From Phycisphaerae bacterium (GTDB lineage Bacteria; Planctomycetota; Phycisphaerae; SM23-33), in assembly GCA_021108335.1 (NCBI GenBank), contig JAIORC010000188.1, positions 10,240-74,239 on the forward strand: a stretch of DNA of 64,000 bases, read 5' to 3'. The notes beneath the pieces are model-generated. The model was not told the origin of the DNA, ran no database searches, and was given only the letters and a program-made list of their open reading frames with translations. Below, one piece after another: positions 21,020-48,775 of the stretch. Position 1 is the first letter of the stretch; each line of letters begins with the position of its first letter. Both the position numbers and the translations under genes were made by a program.

Positions 21020-21934
21020 TCAGCCCTTGACGGCGCCGAGCTGGATGCCTTTGACCAGGTATTTCTGCATGAACACGAACAAGATAATCAGCGGCACGAC
21101 GCTCATGGCGACGGCAGCCATCAGCAGGTGCGTCGCCTGGCCCTGAGAGCTGTCGAAGGCCAGCAGGCCTATCGGCAGCGTATACTTGTGTTGCGAACGG
21201 AGCATGACCAGCGGCCAGAAGAAGCTCTTGTACGTACCCATGAACGTGAAGATGCAGAGCACGATCAGCCCCGGCCTGGCCAGCGGCATGATTACTTCCC
21301 AGAATACCTGCCATTTGCTCGCGCCGTCGATTTCGGCGGCTTCGTCCAGGCTGGACGGGATACCCATCATGAACTGCCTCAGCATGAACGTCCCGAAAGC
21401 GGTAAACGCCGCGGGAATTATCAGGCCTTCGTAGCTGTCCACCCATCCCAGCCAGTCCATGAGCTTAAATTTCGGGATCATCAACACCAAGCCGGGAATC
21501 ATCATAGTCGCCAGGTACAGCAGGAAAACCTTGTCTCGCCCGCGCCATTTCAGTCGGCTGAAAGCAAATGCCGCCATCGCGCTGGTCAGGCATTGAAGCA
21601 GTGTTACCCAGGATGCGATAAGCAGGCTGTTGAAGTAATATCGCATGAAAGCAGAATCAGTGAAGTACTGCCACCAATGCCACTGCGGATCCTTTTCGCC
21701 AGCCGCCGCTCCGTAGCTGAGCTTCTTGAAAACTTCCTGGTAATTTTCCGCCTGCCATTTTTCGGGAACCCAGTGTGTTCCCGAAACTTCTTCAAACGGC
21801 TTGAAGCTGGTCAGTGTCATCCAGACGAACGGCATAGCCATCGTACAACAGAGCATCAACAGGAACACGTGGCTGGTCAACATTGTCGCCAGCGGCTTAA
21901 AGAATTTATTGCGATGTTTGGCGGTTTTATTCAT
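21020..21934 (-). CDS. Carbohydrate ABC transporter permease (MalG-like)
   Basis: EAA-loop region DEAAEIDGASKWQVFWEVIMPLARPG; 6 TM; 8-bp overlap with the upstream permease. Confidence 0.85.
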   Translation of the reverse strand: MNKTAKHRNKFFKPLATMLTSHVFLLMLCCTMAMPFVWMTLTSFKPFEEVSGTHWVPEKWQAENYQEVFKKLSYGAAAGEKDPQWHWWQYFTDSAFMRYYFNSLLIASWVTLLQCLTSAMAAFAFSRLKWRGRDKVFLLYLATMMIPGLVLMIPKFKLMDWLGWVDSYEGLIIPAAFTAFGTFMLRQFMMGIPSSLDEAAEIDGASKWQVFWEVIMPLARPGLIVLCIFTFMGTYKSFFWPLVMLRSQHKYTLPIGLLAFDSSQGQATHLLMAAVAMSVVPLIILFVFMQKYLVKGIQLGAVKG

Positions 21935-29859: not shown

Positions 29860-32826
29860 GTGCGCAAATCATTCATAATTATTTCATGTGTTTTGACGAT
29901 ACTTGTCGGGAGTGTGGCATCGCTGCAGGCCGCCGGTATCGGAGAAACTCAAGCGAAATATCTGTGCATCAGCAAAACGGCCCATCCGCCGGTAATTGAC
30001 GGGAAGCTTGGCAAAGACGAATGGGCCGGCTGCGCCAAAATTCCCGGTTTTGTGCTGAAAAGCGGTATCTGCCCCCCGACGCAACAGACGGAAGTCTTTA
30101 TCACCTATGACGACAAGACTTTTTACTTTGCCGCGCGTTGCCTCGAATCGAGCATGGATAAAATCAGAACCAGGGTAAAGGAGCACAACGGGGCGGTTTA
30201 TAATGACGATAACATCGAGTTGTTTATTGACACGAATTATGACCGATACAGCTATCGGCAGTTCGTCCTGAATTCCATCGCCGTGCAGTGGAGTGACGAG
30301 CTATCGAAAAAGGGAACATGGCCCGCGGCTGCCCAGAGACACGCCGACCGCTGGGTCGTGGAAATGGCCATCCCCTTCGCCCAGCTTGGAATCACGCCGG
30401 AAAAGGGGTTTGTCTGCGGGCTTAACATCTGTCGTATCCGCTGGGGCAAGAAGCCGGAGTTGAGCTGCTGGTCGCCGACGTACGGTGGGTTTCATTCGCC
30501 GGGACGTTTCGGCTGCATGGTCTTTGGTTCTTTTAAGGATGTAGCGGTCCGCGAGGCCGACAAGCTCAGGGCGCAGCTTGACAAGATTACAGCGAAAGAT
30601 TCCGGCAATGCGGCAATGCTTGTAGAGATTAAAAAGCTGGAGGAATCGGTTAAACCGGATGAAAAATTCGACGTTGATCGATTCCGTTCGCTCCGCAAAT
30701 CGGCCGAGGCCATTGGTGAAAAAATAGTAGACCTTGGGTTGTCGGACTTGCGCGCGAAATTGACCGGCGCCGGCACGGTGGAAACGCAGCATCTGACTTC
30801 TGCCGCCTCACGGGGCAATTACAAGTTCCCGGAAAACTGGCGGAGCCGGAAGATTCTGGGGCAATATGATTTCCTGCACGATCTTTCGAACCACAAAATG
30901 CCCCTTTTCAAAAAGGCTGGACTCGCGGATGAACCTTTTATCAAGGACGCGCTCATGGGGGTCTATGTCCTGCACAATAAGATGTTCAAGAAGAAATTCT
31001 TCGATCCCAAATCCCCTATCCGAAAAGAGCTGAAAAAAACCGGCAGGCCGTTTTGCATAAACGCCCTGGTTGGTAATGCCCGAATCAGCGACATTCCGCC
31101 TTCCCTGTGCCGGCGATTCATCAAGGAATACGGCGACCAGTTTGTCGGTTTTATCGCGGACGAATGCTTTGGCCATGACGCCGATAAAAAATGGAGACAT
31201 CTGGGGGTAAGCAAGCCGAAAAACCGGAAAGACGCATTTATGGTTTTTGTAGCCTGTGCGCTGGATCGGCACACAAGGATTTTCCGCAACTGGGCCTTGA
31301 GCCATAACGAATTCCGCAACTGGGCGATTTGCACGATTTCAGATCCGCTTGACCATTTAGCGCTCGAAACTCATAACCTCGTGATGTCCGGCCATGAAAT
31401 CGGCGGCTATATGATGAGTACGCCTTTTGCGTTTGCTTGTTCCCGTGGAGCGGCAAGGCAATACGATAAGCCGTGGAGGACGTACTTGGCGGTGTGGGGG
31501 CCGGGCGTTGTCTGGGGATCTGTAACGGGCTATCAGTTTTTGTCGCCGCGTTGTCGCAGGGCGTTTGCCCGGCCGACGTGGGATACTGGCCCGTATTGCG
31601 GCACGTCGCTTTCACTTCAGAAGCGGCAGATTTTTGGTGCTTACATGTCGGGCACAAACATATTTCGCGACGAAAGCGATGCCGATGTAGGTTCGATCTA
31701 TGTCGCCAATTACGACCATCGGAAAATTCATGAGGTCGACGATCTGGTGATAGTGTTGCGGGACCGACCCTATGCCCTTTCACCGGCTGGTTCAATCCGC
31801 CAGGAACTCCATGATAACCTTGTAAAAAAGCATGACCGCGGCGCAACATACACGCCGGTGGCACTGATCTTCGACCGCTATCATGGGTACATGAATACGG
31901 AGAATATCAGTTATATTCTGGGCATGATTCCATACGCCGAAGCGGATTACATGATGCGGGCGGTTAACGATACGCTGTTCCCGTGGGAGCGTCGCATGGG
32001 CGAACGGAAGACGATGGTTACCGGGCCGTTCGGCGACATGTTTGATATTTTGACCAACAATGCTCCCGGCGAAGTTATTGACACGTACAAAGCGGCGATG
32101 CTTGTCGGGGATGTCGCTCTGGACGGGCAGTTCGTAAGCAAACTCATCAAGTACGTCAGAAACGGCGGAACGTTGATTATTAACGCCAAACAGATCAAAG
32201 GCAAACTGCCGGAGAAGTTCCAGGAAATGCTCGGCTGCAAGGTAACGGAAAAACGAGGCCGGGGCAAAATCGCGTTCAGTAATCTCGATAATTCGGTGAT
32301 ACCGGAGAAAAAGCCCTTCAACTTCCAGTACCTCCAGCCGACAACCGCGACGACTCTCGTTTCCCTGGTCGAGGGCGACAAGAAAACCGCTCCGCTGGTA
32401 CTGTCGAACAAATACGGCAAGGGCCGCGTGATTGTTACCGCGCCGGATTATCTTAAGGAAACCGGCAGCAAAACGCGGATGCTGAAATTGTTCAGCCATC
32501 TCATGCGGAATCTGAATTCCGAACTGCTGCCGGTGGCGGTGGAAGGAAATGTAGAGTATATTGTCAATCGCAATAAGAACGGCTGGGTGGTAACGCTCAT
32601 CAATAACGAAGGCGCGTACAAATATCCCGGCAAAAAGGAAGTCATCAAATCCAAGGAAAATGTCGACGCAAAAATTACTCTGAAGCGTAACGCCCTGGTG
32701 GAAGTCTCGAAAGTAAGCGAGTGGCTCACAGGTAAAGAGCTGAAACTCGCCAAAACCCCGCAAGGGACAAAAGTAATCCTCACCGTCCCAGCCGGTGACG
32801 TGCGGATTATCGAATTCGCGCAATGA
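29860..32826 (+). CDS. Giant secreted protein, family A paralog 1: CBM9/DOMON-like N-module - coiled coil - unassigned hydrolase-like central domain - GH42-middle-like domain - C-terminal beta-sandwich
   Basis: GTG start at stop+2 of the previous gene; signal peptide; CBM9-like hallmark PPVIDGKLGKDEW...LFIDTNYD...WVVEMAIPF; GH42M-like YKAAMLVGDVALDGQFVSKLIKYVRNGGTLIINAKQ; conserved C-terminal EGNVEYIVNRNKNGWVVTLINNEG...VPAGDVRIIEFAQ. Confidence 0.6.
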   Translation: MRKSFIIISCVLTILVGSVASLQAAGIGETQAKYLCISKTAHPPVIDGKLGKDEWAGCAKIPGFVLKSGICPPTQQTEVFITYDDKTFYFAARCLESSMDKIRTRVKEHNGAVYNDDNIELFIDTNYDRYSYRQFVLNSIAVQWSDELSKKGTWPAAAQRHADRWVVEMAIPFAQLGITPEKGFVCGLNICRIRWGKKPELSCWSPTYGGFHSPGRFGCMVFGSFKDVAVREADKLRAQLDKITAKDSGNAAMLVEIKKLEESVKPDEKFDVDRFRSLRKSAEAIGEKIVDLGLSDLRAKLTGAGTVETQHLTSAASRGNYKFPENWRSRKILGQYDFLHDLSNHKMPLFKKAGLADEPFIKDALMGVYVLHNKMFKKKFFDPKSPIRKELKKTGRPFCINALVGNARISDIPPSLCRRFIKEYGDQFVGFIADECFGHDADKKWRHLGVSKPKNRKDAFMVFVACALDRHTRIFRNWALSHNEFRNWAICTISDPLDHLALETHNLVMSGHEIGGYMMSTPFAFACSRGAARQYDKPWRTYLAVWGPGVVWGSVTGYQFLSPRCRRAFARPTWDTGPYCGTSLSLQKRQIFGAYMSGTNIFRDESDADVGSIYVANYDHRKIHEVDDLVIVLRDRPYALSPAGSIRQELHDNLVKKHDRGATYTPVALIFDRYHGYMNTENISYILGMIPYAEADYMMRAVNDTLFPWERRMGERKTMVTGPFGDMFDILTNNAPGEVIDTYKAAMLVGDVALDGQFVSKLIKYVRNGGTLIINAKQIKGKLPEKFQEMLGCKVTEKRGRGKIAFSNLDNSVIPEKKPFNFQYLQPTTATTLVSLVEGDKKTAPLVLSNKYGKGRVIVTAPDYLKETGSKTRMLKLFSHLMRNLNSELLPVAVEGNVEYIVNRNKNGWVVTLINNEGAYKYPGKKEVIKSKENVDAKITLKRNALVEVSKVSEWLTGKELKLAKTPQGTKVILTVPAGDVRIIEFAQ

Positions 32827-32873
32827 CAGTCAGTTGATCTGGATTATCCTCCACAGGGCAGGAGGAATTCCAC

Positions 32874-35816
32874 ATGCTGGGAAAGGTAAATCACGTGCGA
32901 GCGAGCTTTATCAATATATTATGTTTCCTGTTGCTCCTGGGCGGGAGCGTCGGAATGTTACAAGCCGATGAATCCCGGAAGCCGGTATTGTGCGCGAGCA
33001 GGACAGCCACTCCGCCGGTAATAGACGGCAAAATGAGCAAGGGGGAATGGCCGAAGAAAGCCGCGGCATCGGGTTTCAAATATCAGGGGATCGGCGCGGA
33101 AGCCAGGGAACCGACCGCCGTATTCGTTACGTACGATGACAAAAACCTTTATTTCTGCTTCCGGTGCTCCGAATCGAATGTTGGGCAAATTGTAGCCAGA
33201 CTCAAAAAACATGGCTCGGCTGTTTGGAGAGACGATTTCGTATCGGTGAATATTGACGCAACTCTTGGCAAGGCCGGCTTTTCGCAGTTTCTCACAAATT
33301 CAATCGGTACTCGATACGGCGCGCGCGGGAAGTGGCGGGCAGCGGCAAAGGTGCATCGCGGTTTCTGGTGCGCGGAGATCGCCATTGCCTTTTCCGCTCT
33401 CAGAATACCAGCCGAAGACGGTAGAGTTTGCGGCCTGGAGCTGTATCGCGGAAAACAAGGCGGATACCGGGAAAAAAGCTATTGGGCACCGGCACATGGA
33501 GACCCCCGCGTTCCCACACGGTATGGATACATGGTGTTGGGCTCGCTGCAATCTGCTGCCGTACGCCGTGCCGGAGTGTTGGAAACACGTTTGGCGAAAG
33601 CAGCGGGAGAAAAGGCCCGAAAGGCAATTTTATTGCGGAAGATCAAAAAGCTGAAAACCTTGCCCTGCCGGACAAAAAAAGATTTCATGGCGATGCGTAC
33701 CGTCGCCGCTGCGATTGAAAAGCAGATTGTACGGCTCGAAGAATCAGCGATTTGTAAAAAGGTTGCGCCTGTCGCAACAACGGGGAAAATTTTTCTGACT
33801 TCCGATGCAGCACGGAGCGGTTACGAGCTGCCGGAAAACTGGCGGCTGCGGAAAATTCTGGGTAGGGATTTTTGGCATGACATTTCATCCCGCAGAATGT
33901 CCCTGTTCAGGCGGGCGGGTTTTGTGGACGAACCGTTCATAAAGGATTCGCTCCTGACGATTCCCACCAGGGGCAACGCGATGTTTGAGCGGGTCTTCCT
34001 TGATCCCAAGTCCAAAACCCGAAAAATGCTGAAAGAAACCGGCAGGGCGTTTTGCATACCGTCGCCCCACGGCAGCTATGCTATTTCGCGTTCTTCGCGC
34101 CGAAAGTTTTTGGATGAGTTTGGCGGGCAGTTTGTCGGCTTCATTGCGGACGAATGCTACGGCCACAATTGCAGGGCAAGATGGAAGCAAATGAAGTTGC
34201 CTATGCCCAAAACCCGGCATGAAGCGTTTATGGGATTTGCCGCCCTGTTTCTGGAACGCCGAAGGGGAATTTTCCGTAATTGGGCGCTTTGTTACGTGGA
34301 TTTGCGGCCTTGGACGATATGCACGTTTTCCAGTCCCATGGACCACTATGTCCTTGAACTCGGGCCGATAAAAATGTCCGGCGCGGAGATTGGCGGACAC
34401 CCGAAATCTACAGCGATGATGTTTGCGTTCTCGCGAGGCGCTGCCCGTCAGTACGACAAGCCGTGGCGAATTTACCTGGCTCTCTATGGGATGGGTGTTA
34501 TTTCGGATTCGACAAATGGCTATCGCGTTCTGTCGCCGCGGTGCCGCAACGCGACCCGCAGGAAAAGGTGGGACACCGGGCCGAATAGCGGCACTTCGCT
34601 GTCGCTGCAAAAGAGGCAGATACTGGCTGCGTATATGTCCGGGATGAACCTGTTCCACGACGAAGGCGACAGCGATTGCGGCTCAGTTTATGTAGCCAAT
34701 TACGATTACCGCACAATCGACAGTGTAGACGACCTTGTGATAGTATTGCGGGACAAGCCTTACTGCCTGTCGCCGGCTGGTGTAATCCGCAAGGAATTCT
34801 ACGACAATATCGTCAAGAAGCATGACCGCGGCGCGATATACACGCCGGTGGCGTTGGTGTTCGACCGCTATCACGGATACATGCCCAAGCATTACCCCAA
34901 CCACGTTCAGGGCGCGATTCCGTACAAAGAAGCGGACTACATGATGCGGGCGGTCAACGAAGCGTTGTTCCCATGGGAAAGTCGCATGGGCGAGCGGCAG
35001 GCGATGGTTACCGGGCCTTTCGGCGACATGTTCGACGTGTTGACCAACAACACTCCGAGCGAAGTGCTGAGTACTTACGGGGCGGCGATGCTTGTCGGCA
35101 ATGTCGAGTTGGACGGATATTTCGTGCAACGGCTCGTCAAGTACGTCGAGAACGGCGGAACGCTGATTGTCAACGCCAGGCAGATCAAAGGCAAGCTGTC
35201 GAAAAAATTCCAGAAAATTCTCGGCTGCAAGGTAACGAAAAAGCGAGGCCGCGGCAAAATAGCATTCAGCAATCTCGACAATTCAGTGATACTGGAAAAA
35301 AAGCCCTTCAACTTCCAATACCTCCAGCCGACAACCGCGACGACCCTCGTTTCCCTGATCGAGGGCGACAAGAAAACCGCTCCGCTGGTGTTGTCAAACA
35401 AATACGGCAAAGGCCGCGTGATAGTTACCTCGCCGGATTATCTTAAGGAGCCCGGCAGCAAGACGCAGATGCTGAGATTATTCAGCCATCTCATGCGGCG
35501 GCTCAATTCCGAATTGTTGCCGGTGGCGGTGGAAGGGAACGTCGAGTATATCGTCAACCGCAACAAGAACGGCTGGGTGGTAACGCTTATCAATAACGAC
35601 GGCGTGTACAAATATCCCGGACAAAAGCCAATCGTCAAATCCGAGAAAAACGTCGCCGCGAAGGTTACGCTGAAACGTAACGCCGCGGCAAAAGTCTCGA
35701 AAGTCAGTGAGTGGCTCACCGGCAAAGAATTAAAATTCGCCGAAACCCCGCAAGGCACGAAAGTAACCCTCACCGTCCCAGCCGGCAAGGTGCGGATTAT
35801 CGAATTCGAGTTATAA
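32874..35816 (+). CDS. Family A paralog 2 (CBM9-like - central domain - GH42M-like - beta-sandwich)
   Basis: Homologous to 29860-32826 throughout; RBS aggagg. Confidence 0.6.
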   Translation: MLGKVNHVRASFINILCFLLLLGGSVGMLQADESRKPVLCASRTATPPVIDGKMSKGEWPKKAAASGFKYQGIGAEAREPTAVFVTYDDKNLYFCFRCSESNVGQIVARLKKHGSAVWRDDFVSVNIDATLGKAGFSQFLTNSIGTRYGARGKWRAAAKVHRGFWCAEIAIAFSALRIPAEDGRVCGLELYRGKQGGYREKSYWAPAHGDPRVPTRYGYMVLGSLQSAAVRRAGVLETRLAKAAGEKARKAILLRKIKKLKTLPCRTKKDFMAMRTVAAAIEKQIVRLEESAICKKVAPVATTGKIFLTSDAARSGYELPENWRLRKILGRDFWHDISSRRMSLFRRAGFVDEPFIKDSLLTIPTRGNAMFERVFLDPKSKTRKMLKETGRAFCIPSPHGSYAISRSSRRKFLDEFGGQFVGFIADECYGHNCRARWKQMKLPMPKTRHEAFMGFAALFLERRRGIFRNWALCYVDLRPWTICTFSSPMDHYVLELGPIKMSGAEIGGHPKSTAMMFAFSRGAARQYDKPWRIYLALYGMGVISDSTNGYRVLSPRCRNATRRKRWDTGPNSGTSLSLQKRQILAAYMSGMNLFHDEGDSDCGSVYVANYDYRTIDSVDDLVIVLRDKPYCLSPAGVIRKEFYDNIVKKHDRGAIYTPVALVFDRYHGYMPKHYPNHVQGAIPYKEADYMMRAVNEALFPWESRMGERQAMVTGPFGDMFDVLTNNTPSEVLSTYGAAMLVGNVELDGYFVQRLVKYVENGGTLIVNARQIKGKLSKKFQKILGCKVTKKRGRGKIAFSNLDNSVILEKKPFNFQYLQPTTATTLVSLIEGDKKTAPLVLSNKYGKGRVIVTSPDYLKEPGSKTQMLRLFSHLMRRLNSELLPVAVEGNVEYIVNRNKNGWVVTLINNDGVYKYPGQKPIVKSEKNVAAKVTLKRNAAAKVSKVSEWLTGKELKFAETPQGTKVTLTVPAGKVRIIEFEL

Positions 35817-35961: not shown

Positions 35962-38520
35962 ATGAAATTTTCAAAATCATGTGTGGTGTTGACGTTGGCT
36001 TTCGCGGCTGCGTGTGCGCAGGCGGATCCGAACGTAATTCTTGAGGATGATTTCTCGGGGACGAAGATCAATTCTGCCAAGTGGAAGCTCTACGTTCCGA
36101 AGGGGACAGGCGGTTTCATCAGAATTGAAGACGGCGTACTGCATGTTTTGTCATGTGACAGATCGGCATTTTTCACTACGAAAAAAGAGATTCCGTCAGG
36201 ACATATCCTGGAGTTCGACTACTTTCAGCCTTCGAAAGAGCGAAAGGGCAGCTACCAGAATCATGTGTTGTATAGTGCGACCAGAGACGCAAAGGGGCGG
36301 AAGTGTCGCAACACCGTGTGGTACGTTGAGCAATCCGGGTGTTTGTTCAGTCATCACAACGGCCTGCGAGACAAGCGGGGAGCGATTGGGAATTTTCCTC
36401 CATCGCGTGATAAGTGGTATCGGGTTCGAGTATTGAACCAGGCCCGGAGCACTACGATTATTGTACGCGACCGGAAGACCGGCAAGCTTTGCAGCCGGGC
36501 CACTTTTTCCCACGATCCGGTGTCGTCGGGTCGAATACAGTTTGTTGGGGGGGCATACAACAAAGGCAGCCGCCTGGGCTTCAAGCTCGACAATGTGCGA
36601 ATTCTCAGCAAAACGCCCGTTCTCGGCAAAGCCCCGACGCCGCTGGTACCGCCGGGAAATTTCGAGACGCCGGCGAACTGGAAGCCGCTCGATATCGCAG
36701 GAAGGAATTTCTGGCATTTGGCTTACTATAAGCCCCATGCGTGGAAGCTTTGGGGAATGAGCAAGCATCCGCTGTTTGCCGAAGCGGCGTGGCTGCACGC
36801 TCCGACCGACGAAAAAGCGATCAGCGCCACGCCTCGGCCTTTTACGATGAGGCCGGCAAGAACGAAGGCCGGTCGCGAGCGGCAGGTGAAAATTGTAAAG
36901 GCCGCCGGAGATAAGTTCCTCGGATTTTATCCGCCGATGAATGAGTGGGGCGATGTCTACCTTCGCCGCGGCCGGCTTGGCAAAGCGACCAGCCGCGATG
37001 ACGGACTTGCACGAATTAAGCGGATGTATATCAAACGTGCGGATACGGCGCCGGTCAAACGCGCGACCTTTTCGCTTATGAATTACCGGCTTTTCCATCA
37101 TCACGCCCTCGAGTGGGGATCACGCTCGGTGACAGCCGAAATCGGCGAAACCGTTCCGTGTACCAACCTTCAGATTGCATGTACGCGCGGTGCGGCGCGC
37201 GAGTACGGCCGCCCGTGGGGCATCGATCTTTCCTCGTGGCTTTACGGAAAGATGACCCATTACGTGTACACGCCTGACTTCATATCCAGCCCGTGCTCGT
37301 TGTACAGCGGTCATTCCGTATCGCTCCACAAAAGATTCTGCTACGCCTCCTGGCTGGCTGGCGCTAACTATATCTGGTACGAGAACGAAGCTGTGCTGGC
37401 GATGAATGAAAACGACATCCGCCAGGTGATCGGTTGCCAGCCGGACAAGAAATACGATCGCTGGGTGCTCTCGCCGGTTGGCGAGATAGCGCAGAAGCTC
37501 TTTGCTCTCGCGAAAATCAAAGATCGCGGAACCCCTTACACGCCGGTGGCGTTGATGATCGATTTCGCCCATGGCTGGTCGCCGCTGGGCTGTACGCCGC
37601 ACAAGATATGGGCCAATCTGCCGCTGGCCAAGGGCGACCACATGCTCGACGAGTTCTTCAATACGATTTACCCGTGGAACCCGGCCCGCGACTATAGCGA
37701 GCCTGGCGCGCGCAAGCCAGGCAGGAACGGCGAGCAGGGCTTCCTGACGCCAACTCCCTATGGCGATATCTTCGACGTGTTCACGAACAAGTCATGCCGC
37801 ACCCTGGCTGGCTATCGCGTATTGATGATGGTGGGCGACGTGCGGATCGACAAGGCCCTGGCGGCAAAACTTATAGCATACGTCAAAAATGGCGGCACAC
37901 TCGTTATCAACGCGAAGCAGCTCGGGGCGCATTTGCCGGCGAAGTTCCTCGGCGCTAAGCTGACGGGGCAAAGCGGCACGGCGAAGTCGGCTTTGTGCAA
38001 GCTCGACGGCAAAAAGCTTGCCGGGGCGGCATTCAGCTACGCCAAGGTGGAATTGACAACCGCCAAGCCGCTCGTTACAGCCGATGGCGGCAAAGACGCG
38101 CTGGCTTGCATTAACGAGGTCGGCAAGGGCAGAGTAGTTCTCACGACACCGCCTTATCTTCTCAACAAGAAGAATCGTGCGGTGCCCATGTTGAAGCACC
38201 TGTTGAAACATCTCACCAGCGGCCTGCTGCCGGTTCGCGTCAGCGAAGGCGACGGCCTGGAGTATACGGTCAACCGCACCGCCAAGGGCTGGGTTGTGGG
38301 GCTTATTAACAATAAGGGTATTTACAAGCAGCCGACCGGCCCGCCGACAATCAGGCCCGAAGAGGAAATAGCAGTAATGGTGCGTCTGGATGGTGTGGCG
38401 ACGAAGGCTACCGAATGGATCACCGGCAAGAAGCTGAAAATGAAAACCACGAAAAAAAGTACAACCGTCAGGCTGGTCGTCCCAGCCGGCGACGTACGAA
38501 TTATTGAATTGGAGAAATAA
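35962..38520 (+). CDS. Family B paralog 1: ConA/LamG-like N-module fused to the same central domain - GH42M-like - beta-sandwich core
   Basis: Signal peptide. N-module ILEDDFSGTKINSAKWKLYVP... is a jelly-roll lectin/glucanase-like fold. The central RGAAREYGRPWGIDLS and SGHSVSLHKRFCYASWLAGANYIWYE align with family A RGAARQYDKPWRTYLA and CGTSLSLQKRQIFGAYMSGTNIFRDE. C-terminus ...VPAGDVRIIELEK. Confidence 0.6.
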   Translation: MKFSKSCVVLTLAFAAACAQADPNVILEDDFSGTKINSAKWKLYVPKGTGGFIRIEDGVLHVLSCDRSAFFTTKKEIPSGHILEFDYFQPSKERKGSYQNHVLYSATRDAKGRKCRNTVWYVEQSGCLFSHHNGLRDKRGAIGNFPPSRDKWYRVRVLNQARSTTIIVRDRKTGKLCSRATFSHDPVSSGRIQFVGGAYNKGSRLGFKLDNVRILSKTPVLGKAPTPLVPPGNFETPANWKPLDIAGRNFWHLAYYKPHAWKLWGMSKHPLFAEAAWLHAPTDEKAISATPRPFTMRPARTKAGRERQVKIVKAAGDKFLGFYPPMNEWGDVYLRRGRLGKATSRDDGLARIKRMYIKRADTAPVKRATFSLMNYRLFHHHALEWGSRSVTAEIGETVPCTNLQIACTRGAAREYGRPWGIDLSSWLYGKMTHYVYTPDFISSPCSLYSGHSVSLHKRFCYASWLAGANYIWYENEAVLAMNENDIRQVIGCQPDKKYDRWVLSPVGEIAQKLFALAKIKDRGTPYTPVALMIDFAHGWSPLGCTPHKIWANLPLAKGDHMLDEFFNTIYPWNPARDYSEPGARKPGRNGEQGFLTPTPYGDIFDVFTNKSCRTLAGYRVLMMVGDVRIDKALAAKLIAYVKNGGTLVINAKQLGAHLPAKFLGAKLTGQSGTAKSALCKLDGKKLAGAAFSYAKVELTTAKPLVTADGGKDALACINEVGKGRVVLTTPPYLLNKKNRAVPMLKHLLKHLTSGLLPVRVSEGDGLEYTVNRTAKGWVVGLINNKGIYKQPTGPPTIRPEEEIAVMVRLDGVATKATEWITGKKLKMKTTKKSTTVRLVVPAGDVRIIELEK

Positions 38521-38521
38521 C

Positions 38522-41080
38522 ATGCGTGCAACACTCAAAATTACTTTATGCCTGTTTTTACTGATGGCCTTCTGCGCGAAGTCCCTGGCTTCGCCCAAGG
38601 TAATTCTCGAGGACGATTTCTCGGGAACGAAGATCAATTCTCGCAAGTGGACGGTACGCGTTCCCAAGACGAAGGGCAGTTTCGCCAAAATTGAAAACGG
38701 CGTGCTGCATGTTCTTGCCTGCGACAAAGAGGCATCGATAGCTACGCGGCCGGCAATACCGGCTGCTCACATATTGGAGTTTGATTACCTGCAGCCGTCG
38801 ACAGAGATGCGTGGCGGCTACCAGAACAACATATCGTTTCAGACGATAAAAAGGCAACCGGGGCGGTGGGGTGGCGTGTTATGGTATATCGAGAGATCCG
38901 GCGTTACATACAGTCTGTGCGGCGGAATGTGGGGCAGGAAGGAAACACTTGGCAAGAAATTCCCGGTGATAAACAACAAGTGGTATCGGGTTCAGATATA
39001 CAATTTCATGGGAAGCACCATGATTGTTCTGCGCGATAAGGCTACAGGCAAGATCGAAAGCAAAACTGTTTTTCAACATGATCCCTCGTCGGATGGGCGC
39101 ATATTTTTCAAGGCGGCATCGACCAGAAAAGGAAGTCGCTGGGGATTCAAACTCGATAACGTGCGGATTACTTCAGGAGGTGGGACTCTCGATAAAGCAC
39201 CTGCCGCGCTGTTGCCTGCGCAAAAGCCGCGAGTCGGTAAAAGCTGGCAGCCCATGATGCTTGCAGGCAGGAGTTTCTGGCATCTCGCCTACTACAATCC
39301 TGTTCAATGGAAGGCCTGGGGCATGAGCGACCTGCCGCTTTTCGCGGAATCGGCATGGATGGCTGCGCCGCAGGATGCGGAGCTGCTTGGCCAGGGTAAG
39401 AGACCTTACACGCTGAAACCCAGAGGCAAAAACGCCGCAAGCATCGCGAAAAACGCCGGCAACGAGTTTTTGGGCTTCTATCCGACTCTGAATGAATGGG
39501 GCGATGTTCTTCTCAGGTCTGGGCCATGGAAAAAAATGAAGATCAAATCCAGGTACGAGGGGGTTGCGGCGCTGGAACAAATGTACAAAAAGAGAGCCGC
39601 GTCCGCACCGGTAAGCAAGGATATTTTTTCGTGGGTAGGCTACAAGCCTTTCAATCATCAGGCATGTGAGTGGGGCGCGCGAGCGCTGATCGTCGAAACC
39701 GGAGAAACGATCCCCTGCACCAATCTCCAGATTGCATTCATACGTGGAGCGGCAAGGGAATACGGCAAACCCTGGGGCGTGGATATTTCCGCATGGTTGT
39801 TCGGCGCCATGACCAACTACGTTCCGGTACAGGATTTCGTCACGGCACGCTCTGGCCCGTTTTCCGGTCATTCGGTATCTTTTCATAAGAGGATGTCGTA
39901 TGTGTCCTGGCTCACCGGGGCAAACTACCTCCTGTACGAAGAGCGCAGGGCTTTGGCAGTCAACGAAAACGATGTACGCCAGGTATATGGATACGCCCGC
40001 GACAAGGCCCACGACCGCTGGATACTTTCGCCGATCGGCGACGTGGCAAGCAAGCTGTTCAAACTTGCCGCAGTGAAAGATCGAGGCACACCTTACACGC
40101 CGGTAGCCGTCATGGTCGATTTCGCCCACGGCTGGTCGCCGGTAGGCTGTTCGGCGCACAAGATATGGGCAAAGCTTCCCTATACCAGTGGCGACCAGAT
40201 GATAAATGAGTTCTTTAACACGATCTTTCCCTGGAACCCCGACCGCAACTACAGCGTGCAAGGTGCTCGAAAGCCGGGGCGCACCGAGCAGGGATTCCTC
40301 ACGTCAACTCCCTACGGCGACATCTTCGACGTGTTCACGAACAAGTCATACCGCACGATAGACGAATATCGTGTATTGATGATGGTGGGTGATGTGCGGA
40401 TCGACAAAGCCCTGGCGGCGAAGCTTATGGAGTACGTCAAAAGTGGCGGGGCGCTGGTTATCAACGCGAAGCAACTCGGGGCACATCTGCCGGCGGAGTT
40501 TGTCGGTGCTAAGCTGACGGGGCAAAGCGGCACAGCCAAGGCTGCCCTGTGCAAACTTGACGGCAAGAAGCTCGCCGGCTCGGCATTCAGCTACGCCAAG
40601 GTGGAATTGACAACCGCCAAGCCGATTATTACAGCCGATGGTAGCGGCGACGTGCTGGCCTGCATTAACGAGGTCGGCAAGGGCAGAGTTGTTCTCACGA
40701 CGCCACCTTATTTTCTCGACAAGAAGAACCGTGTACTGCCCATGCTAGGGCATCTGTTGAAACACCTCACCAGCGGCCTGCTGCCGGTGCGCGTCAGCAA
40801 GGGTGTGGAGTATACGGTCAACCGCACGCAGGACGGCTGGGTTGTGGGACTGATCAACAACAAGGGCATCTACAAATCGCCGACCGGTCCGCCGAAAATC
40901 AAGCCCGAAGAAGAAATAGCCGTAATGGTGCGTCTCGACGGTGTTGCAACGCAGGCTACCGAATGGCTCACCGGCAAGAAGCTGAAAATGAAAACCATGA
41001 AAAATACCACAACGGTTACGCTTTCCGTCCCAGTCGGCGACGTTCGGATTGTTGAGTTCCGTACCCGACAGGAAGATTAA
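38522..41080 (+). CDS. Family B paralog 2
   Basis: About 65% identical to 35962-38520 throughout, with RBS ggagaaataac ATG. The 38504 ORF start is a TTG artefact upstream. Confidence 0.6.
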   Translation: MRATLKITLCLFLLMAFCAKSLASPKVILEDDFSGTKINSRKWTVRVPKTKGSFAKIENGVLHVLACDKEASIATRPAIPAAHILEFDYLQPSTEMRGGYQNNISFQTIKRQPGRWGGVLWYIERSGVTYSLCGGMWGRKETLGKKFPVINNKWYRVQIYNFMGSTMIVLRDKATGKIESKTVFQHDPSSDGRIFFKAASTRKGSRWGFKLDNVRITSGGGTLDKAPAALLPAQKPRVGKSWQPMMLAGRSFWHLAYYNPVQWKAWGMSDLPLFAESAWMAAPQDAELLGQGKRPYTLKPRGKNAASIAKNAGNEFLGFYPTLNEWGDVLLRSGPWKKMKIKSRYEGVAALEQMYKKRAASAPVSKDIFSWVGYKPFNHQACEWGARALIVETGETIPCTNLQIAFIRGAAREYGKPWGVDISAWLFGAMTNYVPVQDFVTARSGPFSGHSVSFHKRMSYVSWLTGANYLLYEERRALAVNENDVRQVYGYARDKAHDRWILSPIGDVASKLFKLAAVKDRGTPYTPVAVMVDFAHGWSPVGCSAHKIWAKLPYTSGDQMINEFFNTIFPWNPDRNYSVQGARKPGRTEQGFLTSTPYGDIFDVFTNKSYRTIDEYRVLMMVGDVRIDKALAAKLMEYVKSGGALVINAKQLGAHLPAEFVGAKLTGQSGTAKAALCKLDGKKLAGSAFSYAKVELTTAKPIITADGSGDVLACINEVGKGRVVLTTPPYFLDKKNRVLPMLGHLLKHLTSGLLPVRVSKGVEYTVNRTQDGWVVGLINNKGIYKSPTGPPKIKPEEEIAVMVRLDGVATQATEWLTGKKLKMKTMKNTTTVTLSVPVGDVRIVEFRTRQED

Positions 41081-41082
41081 TA

Positions 41083-41243
41083 CCGGGCGCACAAAATTAG
41101 TGCGATCGCGAGTAAAATGTCTAATGACTAAAAAAACACGCTGGGTGGCATGGCGACACCGCAGGGGTCGCCATGAGGGATGGCGTAGGAATTGCGTGGT
41201 GGCCTTGTTACCTCGTCTGGCGCACTAACTTTGTGCGCCCGGT
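41083..41243. repeat. MITE-like element: REP-like hairpin flanked by 23-bp inverted repeats
   Basis: accgggcgcacaaaattagtgcg at 41083-41105 versus cgcactaactttgtgcgcccggt at 41221-41243 (22/23 complementary). Inside lies gggtggcatggcgacaccgcaggggtcgccatga (41144-41177), identical to the copy at 13135-13170. Confidence 0.5.
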
Positions 41244-41323: not shown

Positions 41324-44263
41324 ATGCGCTGGAAATTATTGGTTTTGACGGGCTTTATGGCGATGTTTTTCGTTGGCGCCTCGGTTGCGGACGCCGCGGA
41401 GGACAAGCCGGTTTTGTGCATACGCAAAACGCCCCGCCCGCCGGTAATTGACGGGAAGCTGGACAAGGGCGAATGGGCCGGCCGCGGCGAAATTCCCCTG
41501 GTTCGCCTGCACAGCGGAAAGGGTAACGCGTCGCAGCCGGCCAAGGCTTTTGTTACTTATGACGATAAGAACCTGTATTTCGGCGTGCGTTGCGCCGAGT
41601 CGAACATCGGCAAAATAAAAGCCAATGTCAAGGAGCACAACGGCGATATCTGGTATGACGACGATATTGAAGTATTTATCGATACGAATCACGATAAGAT
41701 CAGCTATCACCAATATGCCGTCAATTCCATCGGCACGCAGTGGGACCGCGATTCGTCGAAAAAGGGAGCCTGGAAAGCGGCGGCGAAGGTGTATGCCGAT
41801 CACTGGGTCGTGGAGATAGCCATACCTTTTACCGTACTCGGGATAACGCCGGACGACGGTCTGGTTTGTGGATTTAATCTCACCCGTACGCGGCCTGGTA
41901 AGCCGACTGAGGTAAGCACCTGGTCTCCCCAGAAAGGGTCGATTCACGCCCCGGCGCGCTTCGGCTATCTGGTTTTCGGTACTCTCAAGGCTGCCGCCGA
42001 CCGTAAGGGGAAGCTGCTCCGGGCACAGTTGGACGCGCTGACTGGGGAGACAACCGCAAAGGCCGCTTTGCTTAAGCAGGTTAAAGCGATGGAGAATTTG
42101 GTTCGGAAGGGCGAGAGTTTCAAAGTGGCCCGATATCAGGCTATTCGCAAATCGGCGGCGGCGATTGAAAAGAAGATTGAGGCACTGGCGCGAGCGGAGC
42201 TGGTCGCGAAATTAACTGCCGGAGATACGGGAAAGAAACACCTTCTGACTTCCGCCGCTGCGCGAAGCGGTTATGACGTGCCGGGCAACTGGCGGATGCG
42301 AAAAATTCTGGGCAAGGAATTCTGGCATGATATTTCATATCACAGGATGCCAATGTTCAAGCAGGCAGGCCTCGCGGACGAGCCGTTTATAAAAAACGCG
42401 ATGCCGGCGATTCGCACCCGGGGCAGTGCAACTTTCGAGCGTGTTTTTTTTGATCCCAAATCCGCGACTCGAAAAATGCTGAAAAGTACCGGCAAGCCGT
42501 TTTGCGTAGCATCTGCCGGCGGCAGCTTCGCCCTCGGCCTTGAGCCTTCGGTATGCCGCAGATTCATCAAGGAGTACGGCAAGCAGTTCGCCGGTTTCGT
42601 TGCGGACGAATGCTTCGGGCATGATGCCCGGAAAAAATGGCCTCGCATGAATCTCCCCATGCCGAAAACCCGGCACGAAGCGTTTCTGGGATTTGCCGCG
42701 CAATTTCTGGAGCGCCGGAGGGTGGCTTTCCACAATTGGGCGCTTTGCTACGTGGAATTCCGGCCTTGGGCGATATGCACGTTCTCCACACCCCTCGATC
42801 ATTATGCGCTCGAACTCGGCCCGATCAAGATGGCCGGCACGGAAATCGGTGGGCATATGAAAAGCATGGCCATGATTTTTGCTTTCTCGCGGGGAGCCTC
42901 GCGTCAATACGATAAGCCCTGGCGGATGTATCTCGCCGTCTTTGGGCCGGGTGTTATCTCGGATTCGACACAGGGCTATCGCGTTCTGTCGCCGCGGTGC
43001 CGCAACGCGGCCCCCACCTCTTTCTGGGATACCGGGCCGAATAGCGGCACTTCTTTGTCGCTGCAAAAACGGCAGATACTGTCTGCGTATATGTCCGGGA
43101 TGAATATGTTCCACGACGAGGGCGACAGCGATTGCGGTTCGCTTTACGTCGCCAATTACGACTATCGGAAAATTGACAGCGTCGACGACCTTGTGATCGT
43201 ATTGCGGGACACGCCGCATTGCCTGTCGCCGGCGGGAGCAATCCGCAAGGAGTTCCATGACAATATTGTCAATACGCGCGACCGCGGCGTAATTTATACG
43301 CCGGTAGCCCTGATTTTCGACCGCTTTCACGGATACATGCCCAAGCACTATCAGGATCGGATTCTGGGAGTGATTCCGTACAAAGAGGCTGACTACATGA
43401 TGCGGGCGGTCAATCAGACGCTGTTTCCGTGGGAGCATCGCTCCGGCGAGCAGCAGGCGATGGTTACCGGCCCGTTCGGCGACATGTTCGACGTTTTGAC
43501 CAACAACGCTGAGAGCGAAGTGCTGAGTACTTACGGGGCGGCGATGCTTGTCGGCAATGTCGAGATGAACGGGTATTTCGTGCAAAGGCTCATCAAGTAC
43601 GTCGAGAACGGCGGAACGCTGATTATCAACGCCAGGCAGATCAACGGTAGATTGCCGGAAAAATTTCTCGGCTGCAAAGTAACGAAAAAACGAGGCCGGG
43701 GCAAAATAGCGTTCAGTAACCTTGATAAGTCGGTAATCGTCGAACGCAAGCCCTTCAACTTCCAATACCTCAAGCCGACAACCGCGACGACGCTTGTTTC
43801 TCTGGTCGAGGGCAACAAGAAAACCGTGCCGTTGGTGTTGTCGAACAAGTACGGCAAAGGCAGAGTGATCGTTACCGCGCCGGATTATCTTAAGGAATCC
43901 GGCAGCAAAACGCAGATGCTGAAATTGTTCAGCCATCTCATGCGGCGGCTCAACTCCGAATTGCTGCCGGTGGCGGTGGAAGGAAATGTTGAGTATATCG
44001 TCAATCGCAACAAGAGCGGCTGGGTGGTAACGCTCATCAATAACGAAGGTGTGTACAAACCACCTGGCCAAAAACCAATCGTCAAATCCGAGGAAAACGT
44101 GGTCGCGAAAGTTATTCTGAAGCGTAACGCCGCGGCGAAAGTCTCGAAAGTCAGCGAGTGGCTCACCGGCAAAGAGCTGAAACTCGCCGAAACCCCGCAG
44201 GGCATGGAAGTAACCCTCACCGTCCCAGCCGGCGATGTGCGGATTATCGAATTCGCACAATGA
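41324..44263 (+). CDS. Family A paralog 3
   Basis: True start MRWKLLVLTGFMAMFFVGASVADA, in frame with the longer 41192 ORF. CBM9-like PPVIDGKLDKGEW and a C-terminus ending IIEFAQ. Confidence 0.6.
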   Translation: MRWKLLVLTGFMAMFFVGASVADAAEDKPVLCIRKTPRPPVIDGKLDKGEWAGRGEIPLVRLHSGKGNASQPAKAFVTYDDKNLYFGVRCAESNIGKIKANVKEHNGDIWYDDDIEVFIDTNHDKISYHQYAVNSIGTQWDRDSSKKGAWKAAAKVYADHWVVEIAIPFTVLGITPDDGLVCGFNLTRTRPGKPTEVSTWSPQKGSIHAPARFGYLVFGTLKAAADRKGKLLRAQLDALTGETTAKAALLKQVKAMENLVRKGESFKVARYQAIRKSAAAIEKKIEALARAELVAKLTAGDTGKKHLLTSAAARSGYDVPGNWRMRKILGKEFWHDISYHRMPMFKQAGLADEPFIKNAMPAIRTRGSATFERVFFDPKSATRKMLKSTGKPFCVASAGGSFALGLEPSVCRRFIKEYGKQFAGFVADECFGHDARKKWPRMNLPMPKTRHEAFLGFAAQFLERRRVAFHNWALCYVEFRPWAICTFSTPLDHYALELGPIKMAGTEIGGHMKSMAMIFAFSRGASRQYDKPWRMYLAVFGPGVISDSTQGYRVLSPRCRNAAPTSFWDTGPNSGTSLSLQKRQILSAYMSGMNMFHDEGDSDCGSLYVANYDYRKIDSVDDLVIVLRDTPHCLSPAGAIRKEFHDNIVNTRDRGVIYTPVALIFDRFHGYMPKHYQDRILGVIPYKEADYMMRAVNQTLFPWEHRSGEQQAMVTGPFGDMFDVLTNNAESEVLSTYGAAMLVGNVEMNGYFVQRLIKYVENGGTLIINARQINGRLPEKFLGCKVTKKRGRGKIAFSNLDKSVIVERKPFNFQYLKPTTATTLVSLVEGNKKTVPLVLSNKYGKGRVIVTAPDYLKESGSKTQMLKLFSHLMRRLNSELLPVAVEGNVEYIVNRNKSGWVVTLINNEGVYKPPGQKPIVKSEENVVAKVILKRNAAAKVSKVSEWLTGKELKLAETPQGMEVTLTVPAGDVRIIEFAQ

Positions 44264-44311
44264 CAATCAGTTGATCTGGATATCCTTCCAGGGCAGGAGG
44301 AATTCAACACA

Positions 44312-47300
44312 TTGGGAAAGGTAAATCACGTGCGAGCGAGCTTTATCAATATATTATGGTTCCTGTTGTTCCTGGGTGGGAACGTTGGGCTATTGCAGGC
44401 TCGCGAATCGGTCTGCCTCAACGGCGTGTGGCGGTGTCAGGAGGCTAAAGATAATAAGGCGCCCTCTGGCGACTGGCATTACATAAGGGTCCCGCACCGG
44501 CTTCGCTTGGGCGTGTTCGATATAACCGATTCCGGGGGCAGGGTCATACCGGGCAGCGACGAGTTACAGAAAAACGCCGTCCGTTTCTGGTTTCAGAGAG
44601 ACGTGGTCGTTCCGAAAAAATGGATTGGCAAGAAAATTTTTCTCCGTTTCGGCTCGGTCGGTGTCTACGCCAAAGTGTTGGTGAACGGCAAGGTCGCCGG
44701 CGAGCATTACGGCGAAAGCACGAGTTTTAAGTTCGATATTACGAATCTCGTAACGCCGGGCAAGAAATGCGTTATCTCCGTTCTGGCTCTAAACCGCAAA
44801 GCCGTCGGCAAGACCGTTCCCGGCGGTGGTTCCGGCGGATACGCGGGGATTCGCGAAGATGTATTTCTCGATGCCTTGCCGCAGACCCGCGTCGAAAACC
44901 TGCATATCATCACGTCATTCCGAGAGAAAACAATCAAGGTGAAAACCTGGGTGCGAAACGACGGGGACAAACGCAAAAAAATAACGCTCACAGCTTTTGT
45001 ACTTAAAGACGGGAAGGAAGTTAAAAAGCTTCCTGCCCAAGAGTTCTGGTTGAAGCCGGGGCAAAGCAGGGAAATCGAGACGATACAGAAATGGATCGCC
45101 CCCCGGCTGTGGACGCATGAAACCCCTCATCTTTACAATCTCCGAACGGAGTTGCGTTCCGGCGGCGAAGTCGTCGATACGCTGACGACGCGATTCGGGT
45201 TTCGCGAGTTCTGGGTGGAAAAGGATTCGTTTTATCTGAATGGCGCCAAGGTACATCTCCTGGGCGAGGGAACGCTGGGCCCTTCCCGTCATTTTCTGAC
45301 TCCGGAGACTACCAGGGCATGGGTAAGGCTGCTCAAGGACAGCAATCATAATTGCGTTCGTTTCCACACCGGCCCAGCCCAGCCGTGGGTCTGGGACATC
45401 TGCGACGAGGAAGGGATACTCGCGGTTTCCCAATCGTCATTTTTTCAATTAAGCCGCAACGATGTCAACCCCCCGGAATTCTGGAAAAACATGAAGACCG
45501 AAATCGATGAGTGGATACCGGCCGATCGCAATCACCCCAGCATAATCATGTGGAATGCGGATAACGAAATCCACCACCTGAAATATTCGCTCCGGCTGAA
45601 AAAGATGATCAATAAATATGACGCCACCAGGCCGATCCAATACGGCGGCGACTCCGCGTACAAGACGTCCATGCCGCATTGTCTCGGTAACAAGGACTAT
45701 TATGACAGCCCGGAAGTGGAGGTGTTGAGTACGTATTTTTATGCCTGCTACGGCTATGCCGCCGGTGGAGAGGGACAAAGCTACGGATTCCAGGACCTGC
45801 TCAAGCGTGAGAAATGGCCGCCGGTGTGGCAGAAACTGACGGACAAACCCATCGTAATCGACGAGTTCAGCTATCCGTACGATTTTTGCGACGTGAAAAT
45901 GCTGCGAAACAAAGACCGCAAAGGCCACGTCGCGTGGCTCATCGGCGACGAAGCATACCTGGAAGCGGGCGACTATGACGCAAGGGGGCTTAATGTCAAG
46001 GCGATCAGTTTTGGTGACAGCGCGGTCAAGTCGCGAGTCTATTCGCCCACCTACATAAAAGCCAGGTCGCTGATTGGGGAGGATCTGCTTTCTGCCTGGC
46101 GGTGCTATGACTTTGCCGGCATCGTGGAGTTTGAAAGCTTCTGCCTGACCGCAAATGCCTGGTACGACTTCAGCGCGATCAAACTGAACTACACTCCCGA
46201 AGAGCTTGCCTTGCCAGGCATGAGGCCGAAGTGCCCCGCGGCTTTTTTTCGTGGCGACTCGTTTCTTAACACCTGCAAACCGGAGCTGCCGCCGTACCGG
46301 CCAAACAAACTCTTTCACACCGTAAAAAAAGCCTTCGCGCCAATATTCCTCTATCTCGGCGGCGATATGGAAATAGCGAATAAGAGGCATGTCTGGTTCG
46401 CGGGCGACGATATGAGGAAAACGCTTTGCCTGATCAACGACCGCCTCGATAAGAAAGTTTTCAGGCTTTATCTCGGTTTCGAGGATTCCTCCGGCAAAGT
46501 TTACCAGACGATAAATAAAACGCTTACGCTGCTTCCCGGCGAAGTGAAAAGGCAAAAGGTAAAATTCAACATTCCAGATTTCGCGGCAAAAACAAAATGC
46601 CGGGTCAAAATAATCGCTGTGTCCGACGGCGAGGAATATAAAAGGGATTTTGCGGTTACCGTATTCCCCAAACCGGGCTGTTTGAAAACAGTTTGCAAAA
46701 TAGGCGTCCGCGGTGACAGCCTCGCGGGGTTGCTTGGCAAGAGGATGGCGGGGATCGTTCCGGTGAAGACCATGGCCGAAATCGAGCAATGCGACATTGT
46801 CTTCTGCGACAGTGCCGACTGGCTGGAACGGGAAGCCGAAAAGGCGGAGAAGTTCATGCGTAAAGGAGGAATGATAGTTTGCCTCTGTCGCGAATCCGTC
46901 GCCGGTGTGGAGGTGGATAGGTTCACGGTGAAGAATCTTTTTCCGCGTGCGAAAGGCCATCCGCTTTTAGGCGGCATCGACGCCGACGACCTCGCGAGAA
47001 TGGAAATAACCGCCCTGCCGATGTGGGCAAAGCCCGAGCGGGGTGCTTTCCGCCCCATTATCGACGGCGGTTACAGGCTGGACTACGCGTCGATGCTCGA
47101 GTTTGTCATTGGCAAGGGCAGGCTTGTCTGCCTTTCCCTGCCGGTCCGGGAGTACGGTGCAGAGCCGATCATTACCACGCTGGTCGACAATTGCGTCCGC
47201 TACCGTGACAGCCTTGTTGCCAAATTATTACCGGCGGCTTATATGGGCGGCGCCGAAGGCGCGGCGTTTCTCGCGGGGCTGGGCCTGACGCTTCCGAAAG

Positions 47301-48652: not shown

Positions 48653-48775
48653 AGGAAATTTCGAGTATATAGTCAACCGCAATAAGAGCGGCTGGGTGGT
48701 AACGATCGTCAACAACGAAGACGCGCTACCGGTTGAAAAGGACAAACTTTTTTACACAAACGAAAAGAGGAAAAT
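48653..48775 (+). pseudogene. Relic of the 3' end of a family A paralog (gene fragment, about 40 codons)
   Basis: Immediately after the GH2 stop the sequence translates EGNFEYIVNRNKSGWVVTIVNNEDALPVEKDKLFYTNEKRKI*. This matches the conserved C-terminal EGNVEYIVNRNKNGWVVTLINNEG of family A but lacks everything upstream. Confidence 0.6.

Follow-up and report, generated by a model that had tools for sequence, protein, structure and literature searches.

A tandem array of GH42-like proteins with two unrelated N-terminal modules in a Phycisphaerae metagenome-assembled genome

Gene array and protein architecture

We analyzed a 64-kb stretch of contig JAIORC010000188.1 from a Phycisphaerae metagenome-assembled genome (MAG), hereafter the window, which contains a co-oriented array of seven paralogous genes encoding one common core behind two different kinds of N-terminal module. 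A scan of all six frames with a hidden Markov model (HMM) of the core returned exactly seven family members, the number given by an earlier note on this DNA, which had read the array as a case of module swapping. Five genes on the plus strand form group A: A1 (29860-32826; 988 amino acids (aa)), A2 (32874-35816; 980 aa), A3 (41324-44263; 979 aa), A4 (48779-51751; 990 aa) and A5 (53635-56595; 986 aa). The other two, B1 (35962-38520) and B2 (38522-41080), also lie on the plus strand, encode 852 aa each and are set so close together that B2 is found 1 nucleotide (nt) downstream of B1. Signal peptides, visible as one or more basic residues followed by a hydrophobic stretch, are present in all seven proteins; in A3 and A5, the true starts with signal peptides sit inside longer open reading frames (ORFs). 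The B1 protein is 100% identical to the NCBI entry "MAG: hypothetical protein K8S55_08225" (P0001, 852 aa), whose annotated start at 35962 coincides with the one proposed earlier. The representative library lists A2 as P0012, starting at a later codon. A1-A5 were not returned by a word-indexed protein search that did return B1 and B2.

The group A proteins consist of a signal peptide, a carbohydrate-binding module of family 9 (CBM9), a segment of about 95 residues and the core. In A1, the CBM9 spans aa 33-224 (nt 29956-30531, plus strand), the three-helix linker aa 225-317 (nt 30532-30810) and the core nt 30811-32823. A3, A4 and A5 share the succession of CBM9, linker and core, and A2 carries a divergent CBM9 and linker on the shared core. 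In B1, a signal peptide (aa 1-22) precedes a jelly-roll module resembling concanavalin A (ConA) (aa 23-217, nt 36028-36612, plus strand), a Pro-rich linker (aa 218-236) and a core similar to glycoside hydrolase (GH) family 42 (aa 237-852, nt 36670-38517). B2 has the same architecture, with the N-terminal module at approximately nt 38597-39178 and the core at nt 39236-41077 of the plus strand. Thus, B1 and B2 differ from the other five as the earlier note had described, with a jelly-roll and a short linker in place of the CBM9 and the segment of about 95 aa, and with the core retained.

That a single core is common to all seven paralogs was borne out by a seven-protein alignment and a motif scan, which put the start of the shared part at a P-x-N-W motif, replaced by G-K-S-W in B2 (aa 320-328 in group A and aa 237-239 in group B); the first barrel strand follows some 12 residues later. 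Over the approximately 620 aa of the core, identity is 69-86% among the A proteins and 69% between B1 and B2 (64% over their full length), compared with 33-38% between A and B proteins. The least conserved part of the core between the two groups is the portion of the barrel beside the junction, at 18-28% identity.

The CBM9 modules and the B module

The N-terminal module of group A is, judged by sequence homology, a true CBM9. The Pfam model CBM9_1 (PF06452) matched the group A modules with E-values from 3e-15 to 1e-3, and the bit scores exceeded the cut-off of 23.4 for A1 (34.2), A3 (57.2), A4 (37.7) and A5 (37.9), as well as for two proteins outside the core family, the GH2 enzyme (39.9) and the product of ORF 51834-53621 (41.4). 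The module of A2 alone scored below the cut-off (19.3 bits), yet it aligned with the other modules over its full length. A profile of the seven CBM9 modules matched the structure of TmXyn10A CBM9-2 (PDB 1i82) with an E-value of 3.9e-18 over residues 6-185 of 189. Therefore, the window holds seven CBM9 modules and two of the B type, and the CBM9 count made earlier (five in group A, plus the GH2 C-terminus and the N-terminus of ORF 51834) was confirmed by Pfam and a profile scan. These similarities exceed what chance would give by a wide margin. In the GH2 protein (gene at 44312-48652, plus strand; 1,446 aa), the module occupies aa 1242-1446 (nt 48035-48649) and is 34-39% identical to the CBM9 modules of group A and of P0014 and P0015. 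The CBM9 of ORF 51834-53621 (plus strand) is N-terminal (nt 51921-52622), shares only about 20% identity with its counterparts in the window and is joined to a different C-terminal scaffold; beyond the CBM9, this ORF gave a faint DUF4838-like signal (E 0.05).

In TmCBM9-2, Trp71 and Trp175 reportedly form a two-tryptophan clamp on the reducing-end sugar. In our alignment, all seven local modules have W or Y at the first clamp position; at the second, A1, A4, A5 and GH2 have F, whereas A3 has I and A2 has P. The group A module is related to the Thermotoga maritima Xyn10A CBM9 by sequence homology along the whole module and by the aromatic residue at the first clamp position. It differs from that module in being N-terminal, in sitting on a non-xylanase scaffold and in being followed by the three-helix segment. 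The approximately 95 residues that form this segment, called a coiled-coil linker in the earlier note, were predicted by AlphaFold as three helices with a predicted local distance difference test score (pLDDT) of 81-96.

The B module is about 195 aa long and all-beta, is followed by a Pro-rich linker of about 15-20 aa with low model confidence, and opens in both B1 and B2 with ...VILEDDFSGTKINS.KW. Its Pfam matches were below threshold: Laminin_G_3 at E 0.006 (17.1 bits against a cut-off of 27.6) and 3keto-disac_hyd at E 0.03 (13.6 bits against 26.8). The full-length AlphaFold model of B1 was built from a 10-sequence alignment and is poor in the core (pLDDT below 50 for residues 320-614), so we used its N-terminal module and C-terminal domains. 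Residues 23-217 were modeled with block pLDDT values of about 69-92, mostly above 80. In Foldseek searches, this part matched ERGIC-53, GH16 and 4w65 with a probability of 1.0, target-normalized template-modeling scores (TMt) of 0.5-0.57 and E-values from 2e-8 to 6e-8. We therefore assign the B module to the ConA-like jelly-rolls at the level of the predicted fold. It resembles that superfamily (Laminin_G_3, the 3-keto-disaccharide hydrolase/DUF1080 family, ERGIC-53 and GH16) in predicted fold and in weak Pfam signals, and differs from its annotated members in that these signals stay below the gathering thresholds. We also considered whether the B module is a true Laminin_G_3 domain and set this aside, as hhalign detected no relation to the module of P0019 (probability 1%).

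The N-terminal modules of the two groups are not homologous, as had been claimed; homology of the two regions, which the earlier note had named as its refutation, was looked for and not found. One could argue that both are extremely diverged homologous beta-sandwiches and that nothing was ever swapped, given that both are all-beta, about 195 aa long and placed at the same position, and that MAFFT forced a few shared columns. Against this, a BLASTP comparison of the A and B N-terminal regions gave an E-value of 17, and hhalign returned probabilities of 0.14% with 5- and 7-sequence profiles and 0.2-0.3% with 13- and 23-sequence profiles, compared with 100% for a positive control in which the CBM9 set was split into two halves. 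Moreover, the A profile matched a CBM9 structure, as described above, whereas CBM9 was absent from the top 50 PDB fold matches of the B1 model, in which the N-terminal module led to ConA-like lectins and glucanases and the C-terminal domains to GH42-like enzymes. The helical segment of 95 aa is likewise present in A and not in B. We consider common descent of the two modules extremely unlikely.

The shared core and its putative active site

Sequence searches gave little for the core. Pfam detected weak Glyco_hydro_42M and GLMA_2nd signals, with the GH42M "trimerization" domain scoring 13.7-23.5 bits against a cut-off of 25.8 and agreeing clearly at the level of fold. None of the seven proteins matched Glyco_hydro_42 itself at E<=0.1, and NCBIfam gave no matches for the four proteins searched. 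PDB sequence searches with single proteins and with 7- and 123-sequence profiles recovered only CBM9 and, weakly, a GH42M-like domain, with no match in the barrel. In the literature, with no direct check against CAZy, we found nothing relevant on the core family or on a placement in CAZy.

For residues 225-988 of A1, modeling from the 123-sequence alignment gave a pLDDT of 85 and a predicted template-modeling score (pTM) of 0.89, and the structural matches of this model include many barrels of clan GH-A. The core has the layout of GH42 and GH164 enzymes: its (beta/alpha)8 barrel is of the clan GH-A type, its alpha/beta domain resembles GH42M and its C-terminal domain is a beta-sandwich. This three-domain fold is shared with the GH42 beta-galactosidases and alpha-L-arabinopyranosidases, such as Gan42B (4OIF) and the enzymes from B. 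circulans (3TTS) and T. thermophilus A4 (1KWK). However, identity to GH42 is 12-14%, the Pfam GH42 catalytic domain is not matched, and GH42M stays below its cut-off. GH42 enzymes are also typically cytoplasmic and have no N-terminal accessory modules, in contrast to the proteins described here, which are predicted to be secreted and do have them; a third nearly invariant glutamate (E513) is a further difference. With the GH164 beta-mannosidase Bs164 (6T5O), the archaeal GH35 exo-glucosaminidases GlmA and the Ignavibacterium GH35 beta-1,2-glucosyltransferase, the barrel has no sequence homology, and the N-terminal modules differ. GH42 membership thus holds for the predicted fold and not for the sequence, and the core is best called an uncharacterized GH42-like family.

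Among 58 full-length family members (numbering as in A1), E435, E605, R529, R533, R660 and D729 are conserved in all 58 and E513 in 57. E435 comes after a beta-strand, taken to be strand 4, with N or D as the preceding residue (N-E-W in group B), and E605 follows another strand 170 residues further on. Clan GH-A enzymes carry their catalytic glutamate pair on strands 4 and 7; an N/D-E motif is typical of clan GH-A and GH42, and in GH42 enzymes the two glutamates are spaced by about 170 residues. Because of the near-invariant glutamates, the N/D-E motif and the 170-residue spacing, the seven proteins are most likely retaining glycosidases, and we infer that E435 is the putative acid/base and E605 the putative nucleophile. 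The earlier description of the core as a catalytic scaffold is therefore plausible, resting on the GH42-like fold and three invariant or nearly invariant glutamates.

We also weighed whether the core might be a non-catalytic protein, binding glycans or serving as a structural surface protein with a GH42-like fold. The lack of a sequence match to any characterized GH catalytic domain and the low identity to GH42 would suit such a role. However, three strand-end glutamates (58/58, 57/58 and 58/58), together with Arg, His and Asp residues, are conserved in very divergent members, the motif and the spacing fit clan GH-A and GH42, and the genes stand among those for GH31 and GH2 enzymes, with polysaccharide lyase (PL)-like and sugar-transport genes upstream. 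A non-catalytic core is therefore unlikely in our view.

Distribution of the modules and age of the split

An exhaustive profile search retrieved 1,638 cluster representatives of the core family at E<=1e-3, of which 505 also passed E<=1e-30. N-terminal types were surveyed in the best 265 proteins, where we found CBM9, CBM_4_9 together with CBM9, Laminin_G_3 (E 2e-22), a beta-propeller of the FG-GAP or lambda-carrageenase-like type, Kelch and NPCBM. Further types are an unannotated module of about 230 aa (about 94 sequences), the B module (15 sequences) and no module at all; P0025, P0029, P0037, P0039, P0090 and P0232 lack an N-terminal extension. The module of about 230 aa occurs among P0166-P0265, mostly from Acidobacteria/Pyrinomonadaceae, has the consensus ...EYLWxEAENMRGF...KAPGWG... 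and gave no Pfam match. The B module forms a family of its own, found among these 265 proteins in the B clade only.

A neighbor-joining tree of the core groups the B-module proteins in a single clade, in which B1 and B2 pair and are joined first by P0003 and P0004 and then by the others. The neighbors of this clade are lineages with propellers, the unannotated module or no extension. A1-A5 form a clade within a separate, largely CBM9-bearing half of the tree. At least 13 further protein clusters keep the B architecture, with identities of 48-59%, and the CBM9 architecture is kept in many other proteins as well. In four other genomes, the B orthologues are single and have no A-type neighbors.

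Because the A and B cores share 33-38% identity, fall into separate deep clades and keep their architectures in other bacteria, the A/B difference is, by these comparisons, an ancient subfamily trait, and each subfamily was later duplicated in tandem. These data contradict the earlier proposal that B1 and B2 had replaced the module of the other five within the locus. A recent swap in place, in which a B-type gene arose from an A-type paralog or the reverse on a retained core, could be argued from the adjacency of the two types in one co-oriented array and from the recombination that the array demonstrably undergoes (see below). However, cores produced by such a swap are hard to square with 33-38% identity between groups as opposed to 69-86% within them; A and B genes showed no similarity in blastn, B-clade proteins from elsewhere are closer to B1 than any A gene is, and CBM9-type orthologues also occur elsewhere. 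A recent swap is accordingly very unlikely. The broader claim of domain shuffling fared better: one core does occur on two non-homologous modules, and recent recombination can be traced within group A and around the GH2 gene, although not as an A/B exchange within the locus.

Recombination within the array

Separate phylogenies of the modules and the core had been suggested as a way to look for incongruence, and within group A, bootstrap values by segment did disclose it. The A2+A3 clade received 22% in the CBM9 and 16% in the linker as opposed to 100%, 99% and 83% in three core segments, and the A1+A4+A5 clade received 100% in the CBM9 and 74% in the linker as opposed to 54%, 24% and 28% in the core segments. 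A5 is closest to A1, at 88% nucleotide identity. The clearest break is in A2. The first 920 nt of this gene (32874-33793), which encode the CBM9 and linker, had no blastn similarity to the other A genes, and their synonymous divergence (dS) is saturated; nt 921-2943, encoding the core, are 74-81% identical to all other A genes, with a sharp transition at the linker/core junction. Because a dissimilar CBM9 and linker are joined to a core of 74-81% identity, A2 is, on this nucleotide comparison, a recombinant mosaic joined at the module junction.

Divergence is also uneven along the core. In the ten A pairs, dS over the last approximately 230 codons (about 700 nt, for example 32130-32823 in A1) is 0.39-0.58, compared with 1 to saturated upstream. 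In the closest pair, A1-A5, the values are 0.25-0.27 upstream and 0.40 in the C-terminal part, and in B1-B2, they are above 1.2 upstream and 0.52 in the C-terminal part. Gene conversion acting on the GH42M-like and beta-sandwich domains fits this pattern better than protein-level constraint alone does, and the C-terminal, putatively oligomerizing part looks as if it is under concerted evolution.

A shared segment of about 195 nt (plus strand) links A1-A2 with A3-GH2. Positions 32780-32975, covering the 3' end of A1, the intergenic spacer and the signal-peptide region of A2, are about 89% identical to positions 44218-44410, covering the 3' end of A3, the spacer and the signal-peptide region of GH2, and the similarity ends near the end of the part that encodes the signal peptide.

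An A-type relic behind the GH2 gene

Directly 3' of the GH2 CBM9, at 48639-48722 on the plus strand, we found a stop-free relic of 28 codons (PMVAEGNFEYIVNRNKSGWVVTIVNNED) from the C-terminal beta-sandwich of an A-type gene, 82-88% identical at the nucleotide level to A1, A2, A3 and A5. The GH2 stop codon (48650-48652) lies inside this relic, in another frame. The end of the GH2 gene thus presents a CBM9 and then the 3' part of an A core. Because this is the order of an A gene, we suspect that GH2 captured the CBM9 of an A-type neighbor that has since been deleted. In phylogeny, the GH2 module is sister to the A-type CBM9 clade at 34-39% identity, a position that fits such a capture and does not prove it.

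Proposed evolutionary model

Overall, after analyzing these data, we propose a putative history of the array. Across the family, the N-terminus is a variable position immediately ahead of barrel strand 1. The B subfamily would have fixed a ConA-like jelly-roll with a short Pro-rich linker and the A subfamily a CBM9 with a three-helix segment, in ancient and independent domain gains or replacements. In this genome, both subfamilies lie in one plus-strand glycan-utilization cluster, where tandem duplication would have expanded them. Homologous recombination or gene conversion would then have homogenized the C-terminal domains, while the N-terminal modules and the N-terminal portion of the barrel could diverge freely; the same process would have produced the mosaics, namely the A2 junction, the signal-peptide segment that A2 has in common with GH2 and the relic of an A gene that follows the CBM9 of GH2. 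The N-terminal modules may bind or position different glycan features. For this explanation as a whole (an ancient subfamily split, tandem expansion, ongoing recombination and proteins that are probably glycosidases), we estimate a probability of roughly 0.7.

Several points weigh against it. The core phylogeny is one neighbor-joining tree, rooted at the midpoint and without bootstrap support. The window comes from a MAG contig, and mosaics among paralogs of 70-90% identity may include assembly chimeras. The putative catalytic residues were assigned from conservation and spacing, and E605 is less conserved in the broader 123-sequence alignment, where its lower score is probably a local misalignment. 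With regard to the modules, the helical segment of group A is predicted with confidence, in a model with a pTM of 0.89, and may not be a linker at all but an integral part of the structure; A2 and A3 have lost the second clamp aromatic, and not every module need hold sugar in the canonical manner.

The last two points bear on a further explanation, in which the N-terminal modules are not targeting modules at all and instead belong to the catalytic unit of each subfamily, as a wall of the active site or an oligomer interface. In keeping with this, the type of module is strictly conserved within each clade, and the weak conservation of the junction-side barrel between A and B suggests co-adaptation with the module. 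However, the existence of members with no N-terminal extension indicates that the core can stand alone, CBM9 also occurs on GH2 and ORF 51834 in the manner of a portable accessory module, and the B linker is Pro-rich and of low confidence. We regard structural modules as possible and on balance improbable, and we favor accessory modules on an anciently split family.

A single catalytic family with a variety of accessory modules is textbook evolution for carbohydrate-active enzymes (CAZymes), so the main finding is unsurprising. Likewise, the combination of many accessory modules on one family, regional homogenization and incongruent trees is shared with modular CAZymes and with tandem arrays under gene conversion. 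There is no difference in principle from those systems; what is specific here is the uncharacterized core and the traceable relic beside the putatively captured CBM9. The locus appears to record shuffling at several time depths: the ancient subfamily split, the A2 mosaic at the module boundary and the relic by the putatively captured CBM9.

The core family may be of wider interest. It comprises more than 1,600 clusters at 50% identity from Planctomycetota, Acidobacteriota, Armatimonadota and others, and it combines a confident GH42-like model and candidate catalytic glutamates with no Pfam, NCBIfam or PDB annotation of the catalytic domain, which makes it a target for enzyme discovery in glycan degradation by Phycisphaerae and Acidobacteria. 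The homogenized C-terminal domains also raise the question of mixed oligomers. We speculate, with considerable doubt, that all of the following hold together: the core is an unclassified GH family of clan GH-A type and GH42-like fold, the array is a set of recombining cassettes, the C-terminal oligomerization domains are kept uniform and the GH2 CBM9 was captured. If this were true, the N-terminal modules and barrel segments would diversify and be exchanged at the junction, C-terminal conversion would possibly let the paralogs co-assemble as mixed oligomers with several specificities, and the GH2 enzyme would have gained its CBM9 from the N-terminal module of a now-deleted A-type neighbor.

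Surrounding genes and other sequence features

All long ORFs from about 26.6 kb to 59 kb of the window lie on the plus strand, and neighboring genes there overlap by at most 4 nt or stand at most 243 nt apart. The products of this run are a GH31 enzyme, a CBM4_9 protein, the GH2 enzyme, ORF 51834, two proteins of about 395 aa and the seven core-family members. Upstream of it are a heparinase II/III-like gene (7570-9657, plus strand) and sugar ATP-binding cassette (ABC)-transporter genes (21927-24874, minus strand). The two adjacent ORFs for proteins of about 395 aa, at 56743-57927 and 57932-59125 on the plus strand, stand at the end of the cluster and had no Pfam match. Minus-strand ORFs at 36196-37104, 37120-37641, 37792-38727 and 39173-40261 were treated as shadow ORFs of the plus-strand genes.

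Two repeats were also observed. A direct repeat of 67 nt with 82% identity occurs at 13127-13193 and 41133-41199; its second copy lies in the 243-nt gap upstream of A3, and a regulatory element common to both places is conceivable. A minus-strand ORF resembling an ABC permease (21927-23426) contains an adjacent tandem duplication of about 189 nt with 76% identity, at positions 22403-22591 and 22598-22786.

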